The notes below the pieces were generated by a model that was not told where the DNA came from, searched no databases, and was given only the letters and a program-made list of their open reading frames with translations. From positions 153,159 through 217,158 of the forward strand of contig OW818634.1 in assembly GCA_942492765.1 (NCBI GenBank): DNA of 64,000 nt. The letters run 5' to 3'. The number at the start of each line of letters is the position of its first letter. Within the stretch, counting starts at the first letter, position 1. This DNA is from an uncultured bacterium (GTDB lineage: Bacteria > Patescibacteriota > Patescibacteriia > Patescibacteriales > UBA12465). Both the position numbers and the translations under genes were made by a program. Of this stretch, positions 13,064 to 62,236 are shown piece by piece.

Positions 13064-13149
13064 ACCCTTCGCTTCGCTTCGGGTATAAACTTCTCATCCC
13101 TTTCTCAAAATAAATAAAAATACACCCAAAGGGGTGTATTTTTATTTAG

Positions 13150-13220
13150 CTCGGGGATAGGGATTCGAACCCCAATAAACAGGACCAGAACCTGTTGTCC
13201 TACCGTTAGACGATCCCCGA
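13150..13220 (-). tRNA. tRNA-Gln (anticodon CUG)
   Basis: Minus strand folds as TCGGGGA TC GTCTAACGGTAGGAC A ACAGG TTCTGGT CCTGT TTAT TGGGG TTCGAAT CCCTA TCCCCGA G. This is a full cloverleaf of 71 nt with the U1:A72 pair typical of bacterial tRNA-Gln. CCA is not encoded. A terminator hairpin lies downstream (13118-13146). Confidence 0.9.
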
Positions 13221-37992: not shown

Positions 37993-38076
37993 GCCGCGAT
38001 GGCGGAATTGGTAGACGCGCACGACTCAAAATCGTGTGGGGGAGACTTCATGAGGGTTCGATTCCCTCTCGCGGCA
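37993..38076 (+). tRNA. tRNA-Leu (anticodon CAA)
   Basis: Acceptor GCCGCGA/TCGCGGC, anticodon arm CACGA-CTCAAAA-TCGTG, 15-nt variable arm (class II), T-arm GAGGG-TTCGATT-CCCTC, discriminator A. 84 nt, CCA not encoded. Confidence 0.9.
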
Positions 38077-38081
38077 CATAA

Positions 38082-44236: not shown

Positions 44237-44617
44237 GTTATTAGAGCAGCCGTAAGCCGGATTCTGTTCTAGCGATCATTTATCTAGGCCGGCCATTGCT
44301 GACAGGCTCAAGCGAGCTACTTTTTCTAACCCGCGAACGGATTAGTTTGCTCTTGCTTCTGATAGGGTTTACCACGGCATCTCCGTCGCCGGAGGCCGAA
44401 ACCGGTAGCCCCGAAGGACATCCAGCCACTTTTCACCTTTGATTCTGTCAAATAAATTCCAGAATTAGTATAGTCTCTGTGGCACTTTCCCTAATCTGCC
44501 TTGCGGCAGACCGGTGGGCGTTACCCACTATCATATTTGCTTATAAATAAACAAATTGCGAAGTCCGGACTTTCCTCTCTATTAAAAATAGAGCAATCGC
44601 CCGCTTACTCTAATAAC
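44237..44617 (-). ncRNA. rnpB: RNase P RNA, bacterial type A
   Basis: Minus strand: P1 GTTATTAGAG pairs with the 3' CTCTAATAAC. P3 hairpin CTCTATT-TTTA-ATAGAG. P4 GAGGAAAGTCCGGAC. GTGCCACAGAGA. GCTTGAGCC...GGCCTAGATAAATGA...ACAGAATCCGGCTTAC matches the universally conserved 3' core. Confidence 0.93.
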
Positions 44618-54194: not shown

Positions 54195-56846
54195 TTATTT
54201 AGACATGGTCTGGGTCATGGTGGTTACACCAGGAACCTTATAACCATTAGAGTAAGTAGGAGTGGATACAGAAGCGCCGTCAGACCATTCAAAGCTGCTA
54301 GCTGCAGTATAGCTAGTAGGCTCAGAAATCTTAGTTGAAACGGAAGAACCTGTATCGATTGTTCCAGAGATATTGCCATAGACTTCGAAAGTCTTGGTAG
54401 TACCGGCAGAAATAACTTCAACCGCAGAATCTGCGAAGTCGAGAGTTAACAAGCTTCCTACTAAAGTAGATGAAGCGAGAGCCTTCATGGAACCATTGAC
54501 TCTAACAGCCGTACCAGCTGCCATAGGAGTAACAGTGGCAGTAGAGGTAGCGACAGTAAGAACAATCTTCTTCAAAGTTACATCGCCATTGCTATCAGCA
54601 GTAACGGTGAACTTAGAAATAACTGCATCACCAGCGGTCAATAAAGTTGCCGGTAAGGCAGCTAAAGCGACAGTCGGGACAGTCTTTCTGACACGGAACG
54701 AATTTGCATCTACGTTGGTAGAGGCAGAAGTATATTCGGAGCCGGAAGAAGATTTAGCCTTAACAGACGTAAAGCTTAACTTAATGTCTTTGTTAGTAGC
54801 ATTGACATCATTATCGATGTTGTTCAAAACAACCTTGACAGATAAAGTCTTGCTCAAATTAGCATCGATCTTTACTTCGCCAGAAGAGATAGTGAACTTG
54901 CCAGCACCGGAAACCGGTACGAAGCTATCGATCAAAGTAGCGCCATCATATAACTTGATGGAAGCGATTCTAGCATCGGCACTTGAAGTAGCAACGTTAG
55001 GAGTGGTTGCATCTGAATCGTTGATAACGTTGATTTCAGTCAAATCAGCGCTGTCGTTGACAGCGGTGAACTTGAACTGAGCAACTTCCTGTTCGGCTGC
55101 CTTAGAGGCTAAGATAGCAGAAGCAGGGGTGTTACCACCCAATTCGACGTTCAAAGAACCAGCGCTAGCAGTAGCGAACAAAGTAGAAGTCGCTAAGTTA
55201 CCAGAGGTGATTGAAGTACCGCGAGAATCCTGAGCATTGACAGTCATCAAAGTCTGGAAAGTACCAGTAGCGGAAGAATCGAAGGAACCCTTCAATTCGA
55301 TAGCTTTAGTAGAATCCTTAGCAATGGTGAAGTTCAATGAAGAGAAGGTGGAGCCGGTAGAACCGAAATCGACAGTGCTGCCGACCTGGGAACCGTCAAC
55401 GAACAACTTCATGTCATTGATGTTGGTTGGTGAAGTGCTGCCGATGTTCATGCCCAAGGTAATAGAAGTAACCTTGATGTCATCATTAGTAGCCTTCAAA
55501 GTGAATTTGCCCAAGGAAACATCAGTGCTTCCATTGACAATAACCTTGTTATCAGAATAACCGTCGCTCTTAACAGTCGTTAAGACAGCGCCGGAAACAG
55601 TGAAAGTAGCGCCAGTAGCAGAGCCCATATTACCTAAATCGGTAGTAGAGACCGTGTTACCAGAGACAACGTATTCAGCATTCTGATTATCAAACATAGT
55701 GGTGTCTAAGACAAACTTAATGGCACCATTAGTAGCATTGGTCTTCGCTTTAGCCATCACCTTAACTTCATTGTCTCCTTTGGATAAATTCAAAGTGCTG
55801 TCAATGGTTGCATAAAGGTCAGAGCTAGTACTAACAGACGGGTCGAAAGAGTCTAATAAAACACCATTCAAATAAACTCTAACGTTCTCGAACTGGTTAG
55901 TAGTGGAAGCAGCAGTACCGGTGGTATATTTGATCTTCAAACCATCGGCGACAATCGCCTCGTCGGCATGGACATTAGCCAATAACATTAAGTTATCAGT
56001 GCCCTTGACGATAGTAGTATCGGAAGGAGAGGTAGATTTCTTAGAAACAGAAAGCTTACCTGCATCGATATCTATAGTGGATATGGCAAATCCATCAGCA
56101 GCAGTAGCACCGACAGTAGTCTCGTTATAAACATTGACACCGAAACCGGTGGCCTTTTCATAACCGACTAAATCAGTGCTCTTATTCAAGACGAATACTA
56201 AGCTGCCAGTGCCAGCAATGTCCTTAGAAATGATATCTCCCTTGATATAGAAAATCTTGGAAGCATCGTCCTTTAAGACATCGAAGCCAGTGCTCGGGAA
56301 GTAGAAAGTAACATAGCGGTCGCTAACAACAGTGTTAACGGAAACCTTGTTACCAGCGTTCTCTAAGTAAAGATTCATAGTCGCAGCAGATAAATCTTCA
56401 GTACCATTGTTCTTTATCATGATGGACTTTAGGGTAACGTCCTTAGCCGCAGAAGCAGAAGATCCGCCGACTAAAGTGTTGAAATCTACGGTGAATTTAC
56501 CTAACTCAACTTTCTCGTCACCAACCTTGACAGTAGTGGCGGTAGTGGTCGTGCTGGTAAGACCTAAGTTAACAACGCTATAAGAGGTTGGAGACATTAA
56601 GTTGCTGCTGACCGGGAAAGAACCGGTAACGGCGGCAGAAGTAGCGCTAATCGCAGAAGCGGAAGCGATGCTTAAACCGATGTTACCAGAAGCGGCAGTC
56701 AAAGAAACAATGAAATCTAAAGAAACAGTCTGACCAGCGTTGACAGTCAAAGCTGGGGAGAAAGTCAAAATAGATTCGTCATTGGAATTCATGGACTTTT
56801 TTAGAAGCGACGATAACGCCGTCTCTTTCCGCCCAAACCTTATCAA
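54195..56846 (-). CDS. S-layer-like Thr/Ser/Ala/Val-rich surface protein, C-terminal segment (reading frame +1 relative to 56779..57723)
   Basis: 883-aa ORF lacking its own signal peptide and SD. It is built of repeated beta-rich modules (D.T...I.........L..DG......F....G..F......). It overlaps the upstream ORF by 68 nt, and the frames join at the A6 run 56797-56802. Confidence 0.75.
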   Translation of the reverse strand: MIRFGRKETALSSLLKKSMNSNDESILTFSPALTVNAGQTVSLDFIVSLTAASGNIGLSIASASAISATSAAVTGSFPVSSNLMSPTSYSVVNLGLTSTTTTATTVKVGDEKVELGKFTVDFNTLVGGSSASAAKDVTLKSIMIKNNGTEDLSAATMNLYLENAGNKVSVNTVVSDRYVTFYFPSTGFDVLKDDASKIFYIKGDIISKDIAGTGSLVFVLNKSTDLVGYEKATGFGVNVYNETTVGATAADGFAISTIDIDAGKLSVSKKSTSPSDTTIVKGTDNLMLLANVHADEAIVADGLKIKYTTGTAASTTNQFENVRVYLNGVLLDSFDPSVSTSSDLYATIDSTLNLSKGDNEVKVMAKAKTNATNGAIKFVLDTTMFDNQNAEYVVSGNTVSTTDLGNMGSATGATFTVSGAVLTTVKSDGYSDNKVIVNGSTDVSLGKFTLKATNDDIKVTSITLGMNIGSTSPTNINDMKLFVDGSQVGSTVDFGSTGSTFSSLNFTIAKDSTKAIELKGSFDSSATGTFQTLMTVNAQDSRGTSITSGNLATSTLFATASAGSLNVELGGNTPASAILASKAAEQEVAQFKFTAVNDSADLTEINVINDSDATTPNVATSSADARIASIKLYDGATLIDSFVPVSGAGKFTISSGEVKIDANLSKTLSVKVVLNNIDNDVNATNKDIKLSFTSVKAKSSSGSEYTSASTNVDANSFRVRKTVPTVALAALPATLLTAGDAVISKFTVTADSNGDVTLKKIVLTVATSTATVTPMAAGTAVRVNGSMKALASSTLVGSLLTLDFADSAVEVISAGTTKTFEVYGNISGTIDTGSSVSTKISEPTSYTAASSFEWSDGASVSTPTYSNGYKVPGVTTMTQTMSK

Positions 56847-57723
56847 TCTGATTATAGGTTGATAAGCCGATTCTCTTGACAGTGATGGAATTGACAGTCA
56901 CTGCGCCATCGTTAGCCGCGGTCAAATTAACCTTAGCCATTGGAACGCGAGCGCCGTTCTGAGGAACGGAAGCTGCGGCCGGGGTGGAAGCAGATAAGCT
57001 GACCATCAAGCCGGAACCGGTAATAACGGTACCGCCCATATTGCCACCCTGAGCGACGTTAACGAATTCAGCAGAAGAAATAGCGGTGCCACCGGCAGCA
57101 ATAGTATTGCTGATAGTGATAACGTTAGCCATCTCGAATCTGTTAGCCATCATAGCGGCTTCGTTGGCGATGGATCTATAGTTAGAACCATCATAGTAAT
57201 AGATGCTAGCAGAACCAGCATTCTTTACTAAAGAGCCAACTGGAGTAGCGCCGGTCGCTAAAGCAGCGCCGGTGGTGTAGTTAGTGAAGAAAGCGTCAGG
57301 AACATCGACAACTCTCTTATTCCAGCTGGTGCCGAACAAAGAAGCAGCCTGAGCTTCAGTCTGGATTCCTCTTAAAACACCATTAGGTTCAACGACGTAG
57401 ACTTTAGGGTCAGTCGTGATTTTCACTAACTTAGTGCCTGGTCTCATGGTTACATTGCCGCCCAATGGGTAGCTCTGTAATTCAGCAGCCGGAATAGTAA
57501 CTACTCCGCTGAAATCTGGGTACCAAGAGAAATAGGTAGTAGAGTTAGGGAAAACATATCTCTTGCCGTCAGCACCAAGGTAATAAACAGAAGTGTTGCC
57601 AGCCATTTTGATTAAGTCGCCAGTTGAGGCCGCAGCCTTAACAGAAGCGCCATAAGGAAAACTCATAGCAACGATGGATAATACCATTACGCTGACAGTT
57701 AAGAATTTGCGTAATTTTTTCAT
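56779..57723 (-). CDS. S-layer-like surface protein, N-terminal segment with signal peptide
   Basis: MKKLRKFLTVSVMVLSIVAMSFPYGASVKA is a signal peptide. The last module (GAVTVNSITVKRIGLSTYNQIDKVWAERDGVIVASKK) is truncated by a TGA 5 codons after the A6 run. Confidence 0.75.
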   Translation of the reverse strand: MKKLRKFLTVSVMVLSIVAMSFPYGASVKAAASTGDLIKMAGNTSVYYLGADGKRYVFPNSTTYFSWYPDFSGVVTIPAAELQSYPLGGNVTMRPGTKLVKITTDPKVYVVEPNGVLRGIQTEAQAASLFGTSWNKRVVDVPDAFFTNYTTGAALATGATPVGSLVKNAGSASIYYYDGSNYRSIANEAAMMANRFEMANVITISNTIAAGGTAISSAEFVNVAQGGNMGGTVITGSGLMVSLSASTPAAASVPQNGARVPMAKVNLTAANDGAVTVNSITVKRIGLSTYNQIDKVWAERDGVIVASKKVHEFQ

Positions 57724-58215
57724 AAGAAATGATTAATATCATTCTGATCGTCCGGACAATAGTAGTCGGAACAGATCATAATGATGTGGTTCGATTCTCC
57801 GCTCTTATAGAAGCATGCTTTACTTTCAAGGTTGTAAATCAGTCGGAATCCCGCTCCACCAGCCCCTTAAGGCTTAAGGCGAAGGCTGACTGATCTTACG
57901 TATAAGTTCTGCCAACCTAGCGCGTGTTGCACAAAGGCTGGAGAAAAGCTTAACCGATTTACCGCCTGTTTCGGGCTATGAATCGTTTGAGCTTCGAATC
58001 GATAATAAGGTTTATAAGGGACAAAACCACTACATCTTGCGATATAGCTCGACCCTTGACGGGGTTCTGCCAATCCGCTATCTGCGGCAAACAGCCGTAA
58101 ACGCGAATTTGTTAATTTATCTCGCCCGGTATTGTCCAGAGTCGATGACGAATCTTCTAAACTTGGAGGAACCAATAAGGAGATAAACTAACAAACGCGC
58201 GCTTTAGCGCTTTAA
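57724..58215 (-). other. 492-nt noncoding leader / unassigned structured region upstream of the S-layer-like gene
   Basis: No credible CDS (the 102-aa ORF 57867..58175 has no SD or protein-like features). It contains a 10-nt exact direct repeat GTTCTGCCAA (57906-57915, 58064-58073), duplicated AGTCGGAA motifs and two tRNA-3'-half-like strings. Confidence 0.5.
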
Positions 58216-59061
58216 TTATTTTATAGTCTCGCTGACTTCTTTTAATTTATCCGAGGCTTTTTCGTAATCCTTAGAACTGAATAACTGGATTACTTCATCA
58301 ATCATCCTATCCGCTGCGGTCGGCTCGACGGTTTCAGTAGAACTGGCTGCTACTTCCGCAGAGGTCGCCTGCAGATTCATCCCGGCTGGCACTACTAAAG
58401 TCGCGGTCGCCGAAATTGCCGGCTGAGCGCTAGCGGCGATAGCAGAGACGGCGGCACTTAAAGCCGACCCGTCCGCTATCTGTATTCCCTGCTCATCTTT
58501 AGAGCTATCAGCGATGACGACTTCGTCTCCGGTTTTAACCGGAACGATAGCCGCGTTCAGACGGCCGATCTTCTCTTTGACAGTATTAACCTCTTCATTG
58601 AAGCTATTATTCAATCTCGCCACCTGATCCCTGTTTTCTTCGGTATTGAAAGACGGATCAGCCAGAACCGCAGTAATATCCTGGGCGTGCTCAGAAGCAA
58701 ACTTAACCTCCATCTTATTGCGGGCCGATGAATCGAAGGTCGTATTCAGCTTAACTTTTTCAGACAGAATCCTGGCTATATATAAGGAATCATTCGGCTT
58801 AGTGCTAGCTAAGAGCTGGCCGCTGAATAAGCTGCCGGTCAACAGCAATAAAACAAAAGCTCCTAAAGCATAGACTGGCTGAGACGCTGATTTTAAGACG
58901 CTAGAAACATTTATAAAGACGACTCTCCAAGTCGATAGGTTTTCCGCTCCGGAATTAGAAACCTGAGATAACAAAAGCTCCCGATTGCTTTCCAGCCATT
59001 TCTGATCGGGGTTGATGTTCTTCAGGTTATTTAATTTGGCGATCAACTCTGAGTTAGTCAT
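58216..59061 (-). CDS. anti-sigma-factor-like single-pass membrane protein
   Basis: It lies directly downstream of the ECF sigma gene. It has a short cytoplasmic N-terminus, one TM (VYALGAFVLLLLTGSLF) and an extracytoplasmic helical domain. The call rests on position, not on a motif. Confidence 0.55.
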   Translation of the reverse strand: MTNSELIAKLNNLKNINPDQKWLESNRELLLSQVSNSGAENLSTWRVVFINVSSVLKSASQPVYALGAFVLLLLTGSLFSGQLLASTKPNDSLYIARILSEKVKLNTTFDSSARNKMEVKFASEHAQDITAVLADPSFNTEENRDQVARLNNSFNEEVNTVKEKIGRLNAAIVPVKTGDEVVIADSSKDEQGIQIADGSALSAAVSAIAASAQPAISATATLVVPAGMNLQATSAEVAASSTETVEPTAADRMIDEVIQLFSSKDYEKASDKLKEVSETIK

Positions 59062-59119: not shown

Positions 59120-59701
59120 TTACAGTTTCGTGTCGGCTTCGACCAGTTCTCGCAAAGCATTCAAAGCCCGATGCAGTAAGACCCTGACATTGCCCCGGCT
59201 TTTTTCACTAACCTCAGCTATTTCTTCTAAACTTAAATCGTTAATGAATTTCATGATGATTATCTCTCGATACTCCTCTTTCAGAAGAGGCAGCTTAGCC
59301 TTGATCAGCTCCAGATCAGCCGCCCTATCTAAGCGCTCCTGGGGATTTTCCGATTCATCGATGACTTCTATCCGGTTCTCTTCATCGTCGAGCGAAGCCG
59401 TTACCTTATTGCCGGTTTCGCGATAATAATCGACTATCGCATTACGGGCAATCTTATACAGCAAAGCCCTTAAAGTTTTCGCGTCTTCCAAAGTCTTATT
59501 CTGAATATGGTTCCAGGCCTTTAAGAATATCATGGAAGTCAGGTCATCGGCTTCTTCGCGGCTGCCTATCTTAAAATAGACGAAGCGATGGATATCCTTG
59601 ACGTTTTCATCATAGACTCTAATAAAGGCTTCCTTATCGCGGTTTTTCAGCTTGCTGAGAGTCTGCTTATCTTTGAATTTTCTAACCAGGTTTATGGACA
59701 T
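59120..59701 (-). CDS. RNA polymerase sigma-70 family factor, ECF-type
   Basis: Region 2 (ADDLTSMIFLKAWNHI, YKIARNAIVDYYR) and region 4 HTH (LSLEEIAEVSEKSRGNVRVLLHRALNALRE). About 190 aa, with no region 1 or 3. Confidence 0.85.
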   Translation of the reverse strand: MSINLVRKFKDKQTLSKLKNRDKEAFIRVYDENVKDIHRFVYFKIGSREEADDLTSMIFLKAWNHIQNKTLEDAKTLRALLYKIARNAIVDYYRETGNKVTASLDDEENRIEVIDESENPQERLDRAADLELIKAKLPLLKEEYREIIIMKFINDLSLEEIAEVSEKSRGNVRVLLHRALNALRELVEADTKL

Positions 59702-59789
59702 TTTAGATTTTTATAAATGCTAAAAAAGCGTTAAATGATTTTAACAAAAAATAACGGGAACCAATACGAACCCGCCGCTAAGATAATTA

Positions 59790-59821
59790 TTCTATTATGG
59801 CTTTATCCTAGCATAATAGAA
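59790..59821. promoter_or_regulatory. 10-bp perfect inverted repeat upstream of the sigma gene
   Basis: TTCTATTATG (59790-59799), 12 nt, CATAATAGAA (59812-59821). It overlaps a possible minus-strand promoter (TTGCTT-17-TAGGAT). Confidence 0.35.
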
Positions 59822-59899
59822 GCCCAAAAGCAAGAATATGGGTAAGATTTACCTGACGCCAGATACCGTCAGATACTGCTAATACGCACCGGATCACCC

Positions 59900-59928: not shown

Positions 59929-59935
59929 AAGATGA

Positions 59936-59962
59936 CTTAAGTCTATCTAATCTTGGACTTAA
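59936..59962. promoter_or_regulatory. operator-like site 1 (TTAAGTC-N12-GACTTAA)
   Basis: cttaagtctatctaatcttggacttaa starts at about +1 of the predicted transcript. Its left arm lies in the 10-bp palindrome GACTTAAGTC (59934-59943). Confidence 0.5.
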
Positions 59963-60000
59963 AGATAATATCTAACCTTTTTCTAAATAAACAAGCACTT

Positions 60001-60027
60001 CTTAAGTCTAAGATATTCTGGACTTAA
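60001..60027. promoter_or_regulatory. operator-like site 2 (TTAAGTC-N12-GACTTAA)
   Basis: cttaagtctaagatattctggacttaa is 21/27 identical to site 1 with identical 7-bp inverted arms. It ends 20 nt before the ATG at 60047. Confidence 0.5.
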
Positions 60028-60046: not shown

Positions 60047-60316
60047 ATGGCCGGAGAAATAATCTTCCAAATCAAAAAGGCAAGCTTTCCTATCTGGGTT
60101 TCTGTCTCTGAAGCCGCTTCTTTGGGCGGAGTTCAGGGCAAGACTATCCGCCGCGCTATCAAGACTGACCCCAATCTGCTTTTCCGGATAGTCAAGAATC
60201 GCTATCAGATAGAGTTCGGATCCCTGCTCTCTTTCCTCCACAAGAATACTAAGCTGAACAATAAGCTGAAAGATTTCGGCCTCGGCCAATACGTCGCTGA
60301 ATGGAAGCGCTCATAA
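60047..60316 (+). CDS. small helix-turn-helix DNA-binding protein (excisionase/MerR-like HTH_17 type)
   Basis: WVSVSEAASLGGVQGKTIRRAIKT is a classic HTH_17-type helix-turn-helix. 89 aa. Confidence 0.65.
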   Translation: MAGEIIFQIKKASFPIWVSVSEAASLGGVQGKTIRRAIKTDPNLLFRIVKNRYQIEFGSLLSFLHKNTKLNNKLKDFGLGQYVAEWKRS

Positions 60317-60907: not shown

Positions 60908-61669
60908 TTATTTTCCGGCGACTAGCAGCCCGTCGACGATGGCTGTTACTTTAAGTCCTAGCTTCTTAAAATTCAAGACGCGGCCGCCAGCACGCAAACG
61001 CTTTCTTAGCTCGAGGATACTAGGCATCTTCTCATCATTGAAGTTGAGCGGCGCCGCTTCCCTGTCCGCGAACAGATTGAATATGACATTATCTTTTATT
61101 TCTTTCGGATATTTTTCTAGCGGCGGCAATATCTTTCCGGCAGCAAGAGTCTTGAATTTCTGGCCTTTAGTTTCGGCGCGATAGAAGGCGCCATAGCGTC
61201 TTAGTTTCGCGTCGCTCGCATACATCGTGCCGCGGCAGAACGGACTGCCGCAGAAGCAAGGATGCAAAAATTCTCTCTTATTCCTATTACCGTCACGGCC
61301 GTCATCCGTATCAAAGCCGTAATCGATCGTCAATTCTTCGCCCGGCAAGATGCGGCGGAGAGCGAAATATAAAGTGTGCCCGTAATAAAAATAAGCATCG
61401 CAATTAGAAGAGCAGGAATGATTTATCAAGTGAACGCCGGGAGCTTTGACGTCTACTGGAAAGATAGATAAGCCGTTGTCGTTATAATCCATCGAGTAGC
61501 AAGAATTGCCATACTTCTTTTCCAGGAGCTCGGCTTTCTCGTCCTTAATCAATAAGCCGACGTAGTCGCCGATGACAGTTCCGGCCGGAATCTCGCGGCG
61601 CGCGAAAACACCGCGGCCTTTCTTCTTGGTCTGCCTGATCTGATAATAGCTAGCGGGTATTAAGAACAT
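60908..61669 (-). CDS. SET-domain protein (putative protein lysine methyltransferase) with approx 90-aa C-terminal extension
   Basis: GRGVFARREIPAGTVIGDY, HLINHSCSSNC (NHSC), GEELTIDYG, and a post-SET-like Cys cluster CFCGSPFCRG. Confidence 0.85.
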   Translation of the reverse strand: MFLIPASYYQIRQTKKKGRGVFARREIPAGTVIGDYVGLLIKDEKAELLEKKYGNSCYSMDYNDNGLSIFPVDVKAPGVHLINHSCSSNCDAYFYYGHTLYFALRRILPGEELTIDYGFDTDDGRDGNRNKREFLHPCFCGSPFCRGTMYASDAKLRRYGAFYRAETKGQKFKTLAAGKILPPLEKYPKEIKDNVIFNLFADREAAPLNFNDEKMPSILELRKRLRAGGRVLNFKKLGLKVTAIVDGLLVAGK

Positions 61670-61696: not shown

Positions 61697-62236
61697 TTAT
61701 TTAGCGCGTTTCAATTTCCTCATATCCGGCCACATCTTATTGATATTCTTCTTCCGGAATTCCGGATCAAGCCAGTCATTTCCGGTAATGAATCCGCGGC
61801 AATTCTTGGCGCCGCAAGCGCACTTCATCTTCAATTTCGGATCCGTATACATGCGCCCGTAATCGACGAACAGCTCTTCGCCGGCCTTGATAGCGCGATC
61901 GGCGATGAAATTGCCTTTCTGGTCATAGGCGACATTAGAGGCGCAGCTATGATTGAAATACCAGGAAGCGCCCATATTATTGATATCGGCCGGCACGCAA
62001 TATTCTCCGTCCTCATCAAGCACGCAGAATCTTTCGATGCGCCGGCGCGTCAACGGATCAAGCTTCTTGAAGTCGGCCTGCTTTAAGAAAACGACTTCTT
62101 CCGGAGAATCGACAGCGTCTATGACCTCGCCCTTCTTGATGTTCCTGACCGCGAAAGTTCCGACCTCGCCACGGAAAGATCTTGAGGGACGGATTTCGTA
62201 CATTAATTTTGGTATTCTCTTAACGCGCTTGACCAT
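61697..62236 (-). CDS. SET-domain protein (putative protein lysine methyltransferase), short paralog
   Basis: GTFAVRNIKKGEVI, WYFNHSCASNV, GEELFVDYG, CACGAKNCRG. Confidence 0.85.
   Translation of the reverse strand: MVKRVKRIPKLMYEIRPSRSFRGEVGTFAVRNIKKGEVIDAVDSPEEVVFLKQADFKKLDPLTRRRIERFCVLDEDGEYCVPADINNMGASWYFNHSCASNVAYDQKGNFIADRAIKAGEELFVDYGRMYTDPKLKMKCACGAKNCRGFITGNDWLDPEFRKKNINKMWPDMRKLKRAK

Follow-up and report, generated by a model that had tools for sequence, protein, structure and literature searches.

RNase III sites occur in phage T7 early mRNAs, and the EAR/put-type processive antitermination RNAs, much smaller than the RNA described here, are structured RNAs of envelope- or exopolysaccharide-type operons. 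Known leaders of surface-layer (S-layer) genes are reportedly hairpins of about 100 nt with little sequence conservation. In Lactobacillus, the S-layer mRNA has a long 5′ untranslated region (UTR) that folds into a stabilizing secondary structure (PMC3666127), and intergenic stem-loops set transcript ratios within operons, as in Clostridium cip-cel (PMC4423207). Here we analyze a 492-nt gap, positions 57724-58215, in a stretch of 64,000 nt from contig OW818634.1 of an uncultured member of the Patescibacteria (the whole stretch is called the window). The gap is bounded by the stop codon of a DUF5667 anti-sigma gene and the ATG of a gene for a secreted surface protein, both on the minus strand, and it encodes a conserved, multi-domain structured RNA of about 470 nt on that strand, in the same direction as the flanking genes. 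The RNA is a new family, and in kind it is a structured mRNA leader. A preliminary description made from the sequence alone had proposed a structured leader at this place, and the region is indeed long, highly structured and conserved, in sense orientation and physically continuous with the surface-protein open reading frame (ORF).

Like the S-layer 5′ UTRs (Lactobacillus acidophilus slpA, PMC3666127), this is a sense-strand structured RNA directly before a gene for a secreted and presumably highly expressed surface protein, and by analogy a longer mRNA life would be expected. It stands apart from known S-layer leaders, however, in size, ornateness and operon position, having about 470 nt, four domains, 118 base pairs and invariant loops, being kept across a whole candidate phylum-level lineage, and following an anti-sigma gene without a recognizable promoter of its own in a host that appears to do without Shine-Dalgarno pairing. 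The analogy to the leaders of Lactobacillus and Thermus drawn in the preliminary description is a loose one; the element here is a multi-domain RNA with invariant internal loops. With intercistronic processing elements (cip-cel, T7) it shares a place between genes that are probably co-transcribed and a long, near-perfect helix fit for double-strand cleavage, which by analogy could yield a high ratio of structural to regulatory product; the known elements are single stem-loops, whereas domain 2, the core and P11 of the present RNA (Table 1) would be superfluous to a cleavage site.

Conservation and covariation

A scan with the sigma protein encoded upstream of the anti-sigma gene, using one genome per species, gave 34 orthologous loci labeled Candidatus Falkowbacteria or Patescibacteria group, with some labels of "uncultured Gammaproteobacteria" that are apparently wrong here. 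By BLASTN and an nhmmer profile the RNA was found exactly once in 33 of the 34 (E values 1e-135 to 1e-28), always on the coding strand and always 3′ of the anti-sigma gene; in the remaining locus the contig stops within the sigma gene. The gap sequence is 70-95% identical over its full length even where the sigma protein is only 70-75% identical, and in a deep branch, where the sigma protein is about 62-64% identical, the RNA is longer, at about 600 nt, and bears the same blocks. Helix P1 and the core keep a mean nucleotide identity to the window of 0.82-0.88 across a set of loci in which anti-sigma protein identity falls to about 30-40%. In the window itself, the profile of 27 orthologues has a single match, at 58216-57725 on the minus strand (E 2.7e-130). 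A two-block search pattern for metagenomes, TTAAGCTTTTCNCCAG followed after 70-100 nt by GCGGGATTCCGA, matched all 33 protein-ascertained loci and 100 more metagenome stretches, with no match in viral contigs. Full-length copies number 116, of which 86 are non-redundant (less than 96% mutual identity); for the metagenome loci the search itself dictates that the pattern blocks are invariant, and the unbiased sample in this respect consists of the 33 genome loci only. The gene order sigma, DUF5667 anti-sigma, RNA, surface protein holds in every locus long enough to judge.

The consensus fold of these sequences (alignment A1) has 118 base pairs, 93.5% canonical and 48 with compensatory changes. 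Its covariation score is 0.263, compared with 0.05-0.09 when partners are slid by 1-3 columns, and none of 500 shuffles reached the observed value. RNAalifold on 27 orthologues predicted 94 pairs, 37 with compensatory changes, and an RNA fold on the 86 sequences gave 116 pairs, with the top mutual-information pairs falling nearly all within predicted helices. The core taken by itself (40 sequences, 44 pairs, 93.2% paired) scored 0.216 against 0.02-0.09 in the slid-partner controls, again with 0 of 500 shuffles reaching the observed covariation. The alignment of orthologous leaders that the preliminary description had recommended shows an RNA that is conserved and covarying.

Both strands of the gap fold far better than shuffled sequence (z = -5.7 minus, -4.5 plus). 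A covariance model of the core, R1, gives the minus strand 145.2 bits (E 3e-36) and the plus strand 19.5 bits; an R1 search of the 64-kb window for a second copy of the core found none. Conserved G-U pairs are numerous, and the opposite strand would have C-A mismatches in their place.

Table 1. Coordinates of the RNA, its parts and its genomic surroundings. RNA position p equals window coordinate 58224 - p; P0 to P11 are hairpins or helices.
Feature	Position	Strand	Basis or remark
Whole structured RNA	57740-58204 (p20-p484)	minus	nhmmer profile and consensus fold
P0 hairpin GCGC-UAAA-GCGC, overlapping the P1 base	58193-58212	minus	lineage-specific; terminator-like in scan
P1 5′ strand, AGCGCGCGUUUGUUAGUUUAUCUC	58180-58204 (p20-44)	minus	pairs with 58099-58123
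P1 apical region, short helices and UUCG/UACG-type loop	58124-58179 (p45-100)	minus	RNAalifold and mutual information
P1 3′ strand, GAGAUAAAUUAACAAAUUCGCGUUU	58099-58123 (p101-125)	minus	pairs with 58180-58204
Variable hairpin or insertion site	58077-58098 (p126-147)	minus	alignment
Domain 2: P2 stem, asymmetric loop ..CAA.GGUCGA, inner hairpin P2b	58018-58076 (p148-206)	minus	covariation
Single-stranded joiner CUUAUAAAC	58004-58017 (p207-220)	minus	alignment conservation
P3-enclosed domain	57790-58003 (p221-434)	minus	P3 is p221-228 with p427-434
Core, long irregular hairpin with helices P4-P10	57834-57962 (p262-390)	minus	covariation, R1
P11, long terminal hairpin	57740-57783 (p441-484)	minus	covariation, mutual information
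A/U-rich unstructured spacer ..UUAAUCAUUUCUU	57724-57739 (p485-500)	minus	followed by AUG, 57721-57723
Secreted-protein gene, N-terminal ORF	56779-57723	minus	begins MKKLRKFL at 57723
DUF5667 anti-sigma gene	58216-59061	minus	281-aa membrane protein; 5′ of the gap in the direction of transcription
Extracytoplasmic function (ECF)-type sigma factor gene	59120-59701	minus	193 aa; precedes the anti-sigma gene
GC hairpin and UUAUUUUUUGUU (U-tract)	59743-59776	minus	conserved; 3′ of the sigma-gene promoter
Sigma-gene promoter CTTGCTTTT..TATGCTAGGATA	59801-59834	minus	conserved in relatives
Inverted repeats TTTAAGTCCA..N..TAGACTTAAGTC	59934-59963, 60001-60027	minus	two, conserved across relatives
Divergent 89-aa ORF	60047-60316	plus	inverted repeats lie between this ORF and the sigma gene
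GC-rich leaders, other Patescibacteria	L140:3721-4000, L141:3630-4000, L143:1686-2096, L146:2710-3000		same cassette

Anatomy of the RNA

P1 is a nearly invariant helix of 24 bp that includes several G-U pairs and is 96% paired across relatives, with covariation at p23:122, p29:116, p30:115 and p32:113. Its apical region is less conserved (mean identity to the window 0.55), and there the pairs p57-59:87-89, p66-68:79-81 and p70-71:76-77 are supported. The P1 arms were also considered as the inverted repeat of an invertible DNA switch of the cwpV kind, which was rejected since the apical segment has the same orientation in 27 of 27 aligned sequences; G-U pairs in the arms, which are mismatches in DNA, disfavor it further. 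The variable hairpin that follows is missing, short or long (to about 70 nt) depending on the relative, with a mean identity of 0.26. P0 looks like a weak terminator; about 39 of 83 relatives have a P0-like hairpin, absent in the others.

Domain 2 includes the first copy of TTGGCAGAAC, and the string CCC-GUCAA-GGG sits in its loop, of which GG.CG does not vary among 36 diverse copies. Covariation is strong in both P2 and P2b; p179:192, for example, occurs as UA, CG, GC and AU. A mini-hairpin ACC/GGU within this domain was discarded, as there are GGCCGA variants without covariation and an alternative CC/GG extension of P2 does covary. The joiner beyond domain 2 contains a palindromic UUAUAA. 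P3, with compensatory changes in 7 of its 8 pairs, closes two variable segments and the core, whose blocks UUAAGCUUUUC.CCAG and GCGGGAUUCCGA are invariant in all 86 sequences. The core also contains the second copy of TTGGCAGAAC, which is the 5′ strand of P9, and UGGUGGAGC, which is the 3′ strand of P6/P5 and the antisense of GCTCCACCA, a string flagged earlier. Covariation is strongest in P11 (p455:471 is CG in 42 sequences and UA in 41; p457:469 is GC in 35, AU in 34 and CG in 8), mutual information lengthens this helix to p441:484 and p442:483, and its loop CUACUAUUGU (57758-57764 and flanking bases) is highly conserved. A long-range interaction between the P11 loop and the string GACAAUA, which lies in the apical region of P1, was rejected because the apical partner is not conserved in relatives.

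Junction with the surface-protein gene

The 3′ GAC of P11 lies 24-28 nt from the AUG of the surface-protein gene in 49 of 50 measurable loci. Partition-function folds computed for 52 leaders show a firmly paired P11 and a mostly open stretch from -14 to +8, where the mean predicted unpaired probability is 0.45-0.9. A hairpin that would sequester the region before the AUG (AAUGAU/AUCAUU) was tried and dropped, being unconserved, and mutual information favors the longer P11 instead. Shine-Dalgarno-like motifs precede just 4 of the 51 long ORFs of the window, so that the missing motif before the surface-protein gene is ordinary; the genome appears to start translation without Shine-Dalgarno pairing. 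Since the minus-strand RNA starts near the anti-sigma stop codon and ends in P11 at this short distance from the AUG, it is, judged from the sequence, part of the surface-protein mRNA. A covarying structure on the sense strand, a constant linkage to one ORF and an interval free of terminators are together what a cis-acting leader would be expected to have.

Promoters and transcription units

The preliminary description saw no convincing sigma-70 promoter in the gap, and none is positionally conserved there. A sigma-70 promoter between the anti-sigma gene and P1 was sought and rejected, the best matches scattering from -72 to +1 relative to the anchor of the P1 5′ strand; P1 itself starts 0-30 nt past the anti-sigma stop codon, which directly abuts it in several loci. 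A weak TTAAAA-16-TAAAAT match overlaps that stop codon, within the codons for a conserved C-terminal peptide, KLKEV.E.IK, and because synonymous sites in these codons vary there is no sign of constraint at the level of DNA.

The proposal that TTGGCAGAAC is a promoter element of the adjacent ECF sigma factor has to be given up: each copy forms the 5′ strand of a covarying helix (P2 or P9), the length of the loop beyond the second copy varies, and the rest of the window shows no enrichment of the motif. The proposal is part of a wider explanation, that the gap is a DNA-level control region in which the ECF sigma factor or a divergent helix-turn-helix (HTH) protein has its promoter or operator sites. 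Adjacent envelope genes are the usual targets of ECF systems, the sigma factor here is genuinely of the ECF type, and GAAC-containing strings are present, but we consider such a region very improbable, given that covariation keeps pairing and not sequence, that G-U pairs function on one strand only, and that the R1 scores of the two strands lie so far apart. Inspection of the alignments found in the element no ECF-like -35 (..AAC) and -10 (CGT/GTC) motifs whose spacer is constant at about 16-17 bp; strings from GAAC/AAC to GTC/CGAC are 10-12 or about 20 nt apart or have loops of variable length between them, and all are in covarying helices. DNA-level sites are excluded as the sole explanation, and a promoter within the region, in addition to the RNA, is possible.

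The sole strongly conserved promoter of the cassette lies 5′ of the sigma gene (TTGCTT-N17-TAGGAT with an upstream TG). The hairpin 3′ of it covaries, as CGGG/CCCG versus AAGGGA/UCCCUU, and resembles an attenuator of the terminator type in the leader of the sigma gene. The two inverted repeats farther upstream are probably operator sites for a DNA-binding protein encoded by the divergent ORF; in distant cassettes the gene in the position of this ORF has an HTH_17 domain. A terminator scan found no terminator between the RNA and the surface-protein ORF, and the cassette is most simply read as a single transcription unit in which the RNA forms an intercistronic leader. Downstream there are 8 terminator-like sites against 6.1 expected, which is no enrichment. 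EAR/put RNAs are likewise structured RNAs within envelope-type operons ahead of long downstream genes, but the present RNA has no sequence similarity to them and lacks an enrichment of terminators downstream.

Known families and tRNA-like strings

At the gathering threshold, a search of the window with Rfam 15 assigned no family to the gap. At E ≤ 10, the window copy and two divergent copies (L029 and L016) had only chance-level matches to microRNA and small nucleolar RNA models (at most 26 bits, compared with thresholds of 43-100), and the OLE, ROOL, GOLLD, raiA, HEARO, T-box, riboswitch and ribozyme models did not match. The "unrecognized noncoding RNA" of the preliminary description is in this one sense borne out, no Rfam 15 model matching. 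A search of the literature library returned nothing on DUF5667, nor any account of a structured RNA from Falkowbacteria or other Patescibacteria.

All strings listed in that description are present in the gap, 0-2 nt from where they had been placed. AGTCGGAA does occur twice, at 57764 and 57841, sites 1-2 nt off those first reported; the tRNA-like GGTTCGATTCTCCGCTC starts at 57788 as described, and the tRNA-like TCGGAATCCCGCTCCACCA occupies 57843-57861, one base away; the hairpins CCC-GTCAA-GGG and GCGC-TAAA-GCGC were both found. As reported, GTTCTGCCAA is repeated exactly and in direct orientation at 57906-57915 and 58064-58073, with no further exact copy in the window, and with one mismatch allowed it has 4 matches in the window, compared with 3.5 by chance. 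The 58064-58073 copy lacks a G (TTGGCA-AAC) in all but the closest relatives, and the exact 10-mer repeat is therefore lineage-specific.

The tRNA-like strings had suggested sequence derived from tRNA or transfer-messenger RNA (tmRNA), or a scar of tRNA-targeted integration, and on the plus strand they do look like a T-arm and a ..GCUCCACCA 3′ end. This origin can nevertheless be set aside with near certainty. ARAGORN, run on the whole window, found just two genuine tRNAs, both elsewhere (tRNA-Gln at 13149-13220, minus; tRNA-Leu at 37993-38077, plus), with no tmRNA and nothing in the gap, and the Rfam tRNA and tmRNA models had no match in 57300-58700 even at E ≤ 10. Rather, the strings are the antisense of strands of P3 and P5/P6, helices that covary and have many G-U pairs: GGTTCGATTCTCCGCTC is the antisense of the P3 3′ strand, and the tmRNA-like GGGGCUGGUGGAGCGGGAUUCCGAC is an internal helix strand (P6/P5 and junction) of the core hairpin. 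The P3 string drifts among relatives (GCGGCGAACUGAACA and others) and its partner changes in compensation; an integrase and a repeat boundary are absent, and synteny at the locus extends to more than 100 genomes.

A 102-aa ORF at 57867-58175 (minus) was rightly called spurious, as it is interrupted in a relative 95% identical (L001) and in every other relative; it has no match in Pfam, and no reading frame in the gap is conserved across 32 relatives. That the gap is the longest noncoding stretch of the window is about right, holding once this ORF is discounted; the runner-up is an ORF-free gap of 467 nt that houses the RNase P RNA (bacterial class A, 44237-44613, minus, 176 bits).

Distant cassettes and alternative functions

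Five distant homologues of the surface protein (41-45% identical; L140-L143 and L146, one labeled Candidatus Uhrbacteria) are found in the same cassette, consisting of sigma, DUF5667, a gap of 250-410 nt and the homologue, with the divergent HTH_17 gene 5′ of sigma in L141 and L142. Homology to the core was looked for with nhmmer --max and R1 in L140-L143, L146 being left out, and rejected, both searches coming back blank. In all five gaps AAGGUCG precedes a hairpin, at about 105-150 nt from the AUG, and in at least four a flanking stem can be drawn by eye. The Falkowbacteria have this motif 330 nt from the AUG, a distance equal to 116 nt plus the 214-nt P3-enclosed domain, and this arithmetic suggests that the core may be a lineage-specific insertion in Falkowbacteria. 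A covariance model of domain 2, R2, placed 4 of its 5 best matches exactly on AAGGUCG sites, in 4 of the 5 distant loci, with E values of 0.016-1.7; this is suggestive of, and does not prove, a domain-2 module common to the distant cassettes. The GC-rich leaders of these other Patescibacteria have conserved blocks of their own, CCC..CAGGG..AUCCUGACGGG(C/U)GGGGGA, CUCGAACUCCAGCGCCCGG and AAUCCUCGCC, in addition to AAGGUCGA followed by a hairpin, and are probably a second, related family of leader RNAs.

It is conceivable that the leader is a sensor, riboswitch-like or protein-binding, with its loops forming a pocket for a metabolite, ion or regulatory protein, such as an envelope precursor or the surface protein itself, whose binding alters expression of the surface protein. 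This would be consistent with the blocks in internal loops and junctions that stay invariant where sigma protein identity drops to about 56-64%, with the deeply conserved AAGGUCGA loop common to the distant cassettes and with the position directly before a single gene. Overall, however, we regard a sensor as unlikely. No conserved expression platform is present, neither a terminator/antiterminator pair nor a sequestered start codon, and the start region is predicted to be open; the Rfam riboswitch and T-box models are silent; and the RNA is far larger than typical aptamers.

The size of the RNA recalls the large ornate RNAs (OLE, ROOL, GOLLD, raiA and HEARO; PMC12286853). It has in common with them a size class, a multi-domain architecture with many covarying helices and invariant junctions that imply tertiary structure. 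They are free-standing genes, often beside tRNAs or in phages. An autonomous RNA of this kind, a ribozyme, a ribonucleoprotein (RNP) scaffold or a self-assembling RNA, might be co-transcribed with the operon or cut from it, in which case P1 could be the site of excision and, more speculatively, the palindromic UUAUAA of the joiner could mediate dimerization. The present RNA, in contrast, is welded to a start codon by a 3′ hairpin at a fixed distance and a terminator-free interval, is absolutely syntenic with one gene in more than 100 loci, occurs as a single copy per locus and in no viral contig, and bears no similarity to the models of the five named families; an autonomous function is accordingly quite improbable.

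The surface protein and other features of the window

The surface protein has a signal peptide, a conserved N-terminal domain with 815 homologues at E ≤ 1e-5, and a variable C-terminus; across loci the N-terminal 300 aa are 55-90% identical and the C-terminal part is highly variable. Searches of Pfam, NCBIfam and PDB assign it to no sequence family. AlphaFold models its N-terminal 314 aa with a predicted local distance difference test (pLDDT) score of 84, and by Foldseek this model weakly matches the periplasmic repeats of EccB (E 1e-4, with TM-scores of just 0.16-0.20). EccB repeats have been likened to cell-wall-binding modules. The label "S-layer-like" for the protein is thus no more than plausible. 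In the window a +1 frameshift within a run of A near 56798 splits the gene, at the junction of ORFs 56779-57723 and 54195-56846 (minus), where the window reads TCTAAAAAAGTCC and the relative L001 reads TCTAAGAAGTCC; in relatives the protein is a single ORF of about 1170-1180 aa. A 302-aa protein (P0001) from an NCBI contig of 895,742 bp agrees fully with the N-terminal ORF over 96% of its length, which would fit a deposited genome having this split as well. The frameshift could be a sequencing error, a pseudogene or homopolymer slippage.

Many surface-protein homologues carry a "partial" annotation, and many contigs break within or beside the RNA (L003, L041, L058, L062, L074, L085, L121, L125 and others). 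The breaks may come from conserved sequence among co-occurring strains with strain-variable flanks. Contig ends within the RNA were considered as evidence of transcript ends and rejected, as the breaks may merely reflect assembly problems. Elsewhere in the window, the ORF 60908-61669 (minus) encodes a 253-aa SET-domain protein (Pfam SET, E 9e-21), and an ORF in tandem with it, 61697-62236 (minus, 179 aa), resembles it by eye; SET domains are uncommon in bacteria. Look-ups of window proteins by exact sequence returned no recorded entry.

Discussion

The patterns detected make it fairly probable that the RNA is a cis-acting leader or intercistronic element that acts post-transcriptionally on the surface-protein mRNA, because its distance of 24-28 nt to the AUG is fixed, no terminator lies between, and no conserved promoter follows the anti-sigma stop codon. 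Under this reading the sigma, anti-sigma and surface-protein genes would probably be co-transcribed from the conserved promoter 5′ of the sigma gene. P1 is a plausible site for processing by a double-strand-specific (RNase III-type) enzyme: it has 24 pairs, compared with a threshold of about 20 bp for such sites, and no conserved promoter or terminator separates the genes. Cleavage there would separate the surface-protein mRNA from the regulatory genes, and the compact multi-domain fold left at the new 5′ end may shield the 3.5 kb surface-protein message from decay. P11 may insulate an open, A/U-rich landing site whose distance to the AUG is fixed, which would matter in the absence of Shine-Dalgarno pairing. 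The invariant loops, i.e. the core junction UUAAGCUUUUC/GCGGGAUUCCGA, the domain-2 loop AAGGUCGA and that of P11, would imply a specific partner, either a protein or a tertiary contact, so that regulation on top of stabilization seems likely.

Several points weigh against this role. First is that co-transcription, cleavage at P1 and stabilization are all inferred. Secondly, a promoter in the last anti-sigma codons is possible, the TTAAAA-16-TAAAAT match being present in the window and in some relatives, and in about half of the relatives the upstream transcript could end at the P0-like hairpin and the U-rich sequence that follows it at the P1 base. Stabilizers need neither 470 nt nor invariant loops, and stabilization alone under-explains the conservation; the invariance of the two core blocks is partly forced by the search in the metagenome loci, although it holds in 33 of 33 protein-ascertained loci too. 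Lastly, the identity of the downstream protein as a true S-layer protein is unproven.

A bolder possibility would be a new large ornate RNA specific to Patescibacteria, a sensor, ribozyme or RNP platform that couples envelope signaling by the ECF sigma/anti-sigma pair to the main surface protein, with domain 2 ancient and the P3-enclosed core an insertion specific to Falkowbacteria; we put it forward tentatively and think it rather unlikely.

As a structured mRNA leader, the RNA sits in the one cassette where an envelope-type sigma/anti-sigma pair is tied to a giant secreted protein whose C-terminus varies. The Patescibacteria (candidate phyla radiation) are a very large and almost wholly uncultivated group with tiny genomes, and the cell surface is thought to be where these episymbionts meet hosts and phages. 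To our knowledge almost no RNA regulators have been described for them. With 86 non-redundant sequences the RNA is a ready candidate for a new Rfam family and a tractable target for structure probing or cryo-electron microscopy, and it provides a handle on the control of a major envelope protein in organisms that appear to do without Shine-Dalgarno pairing and have few regulators.

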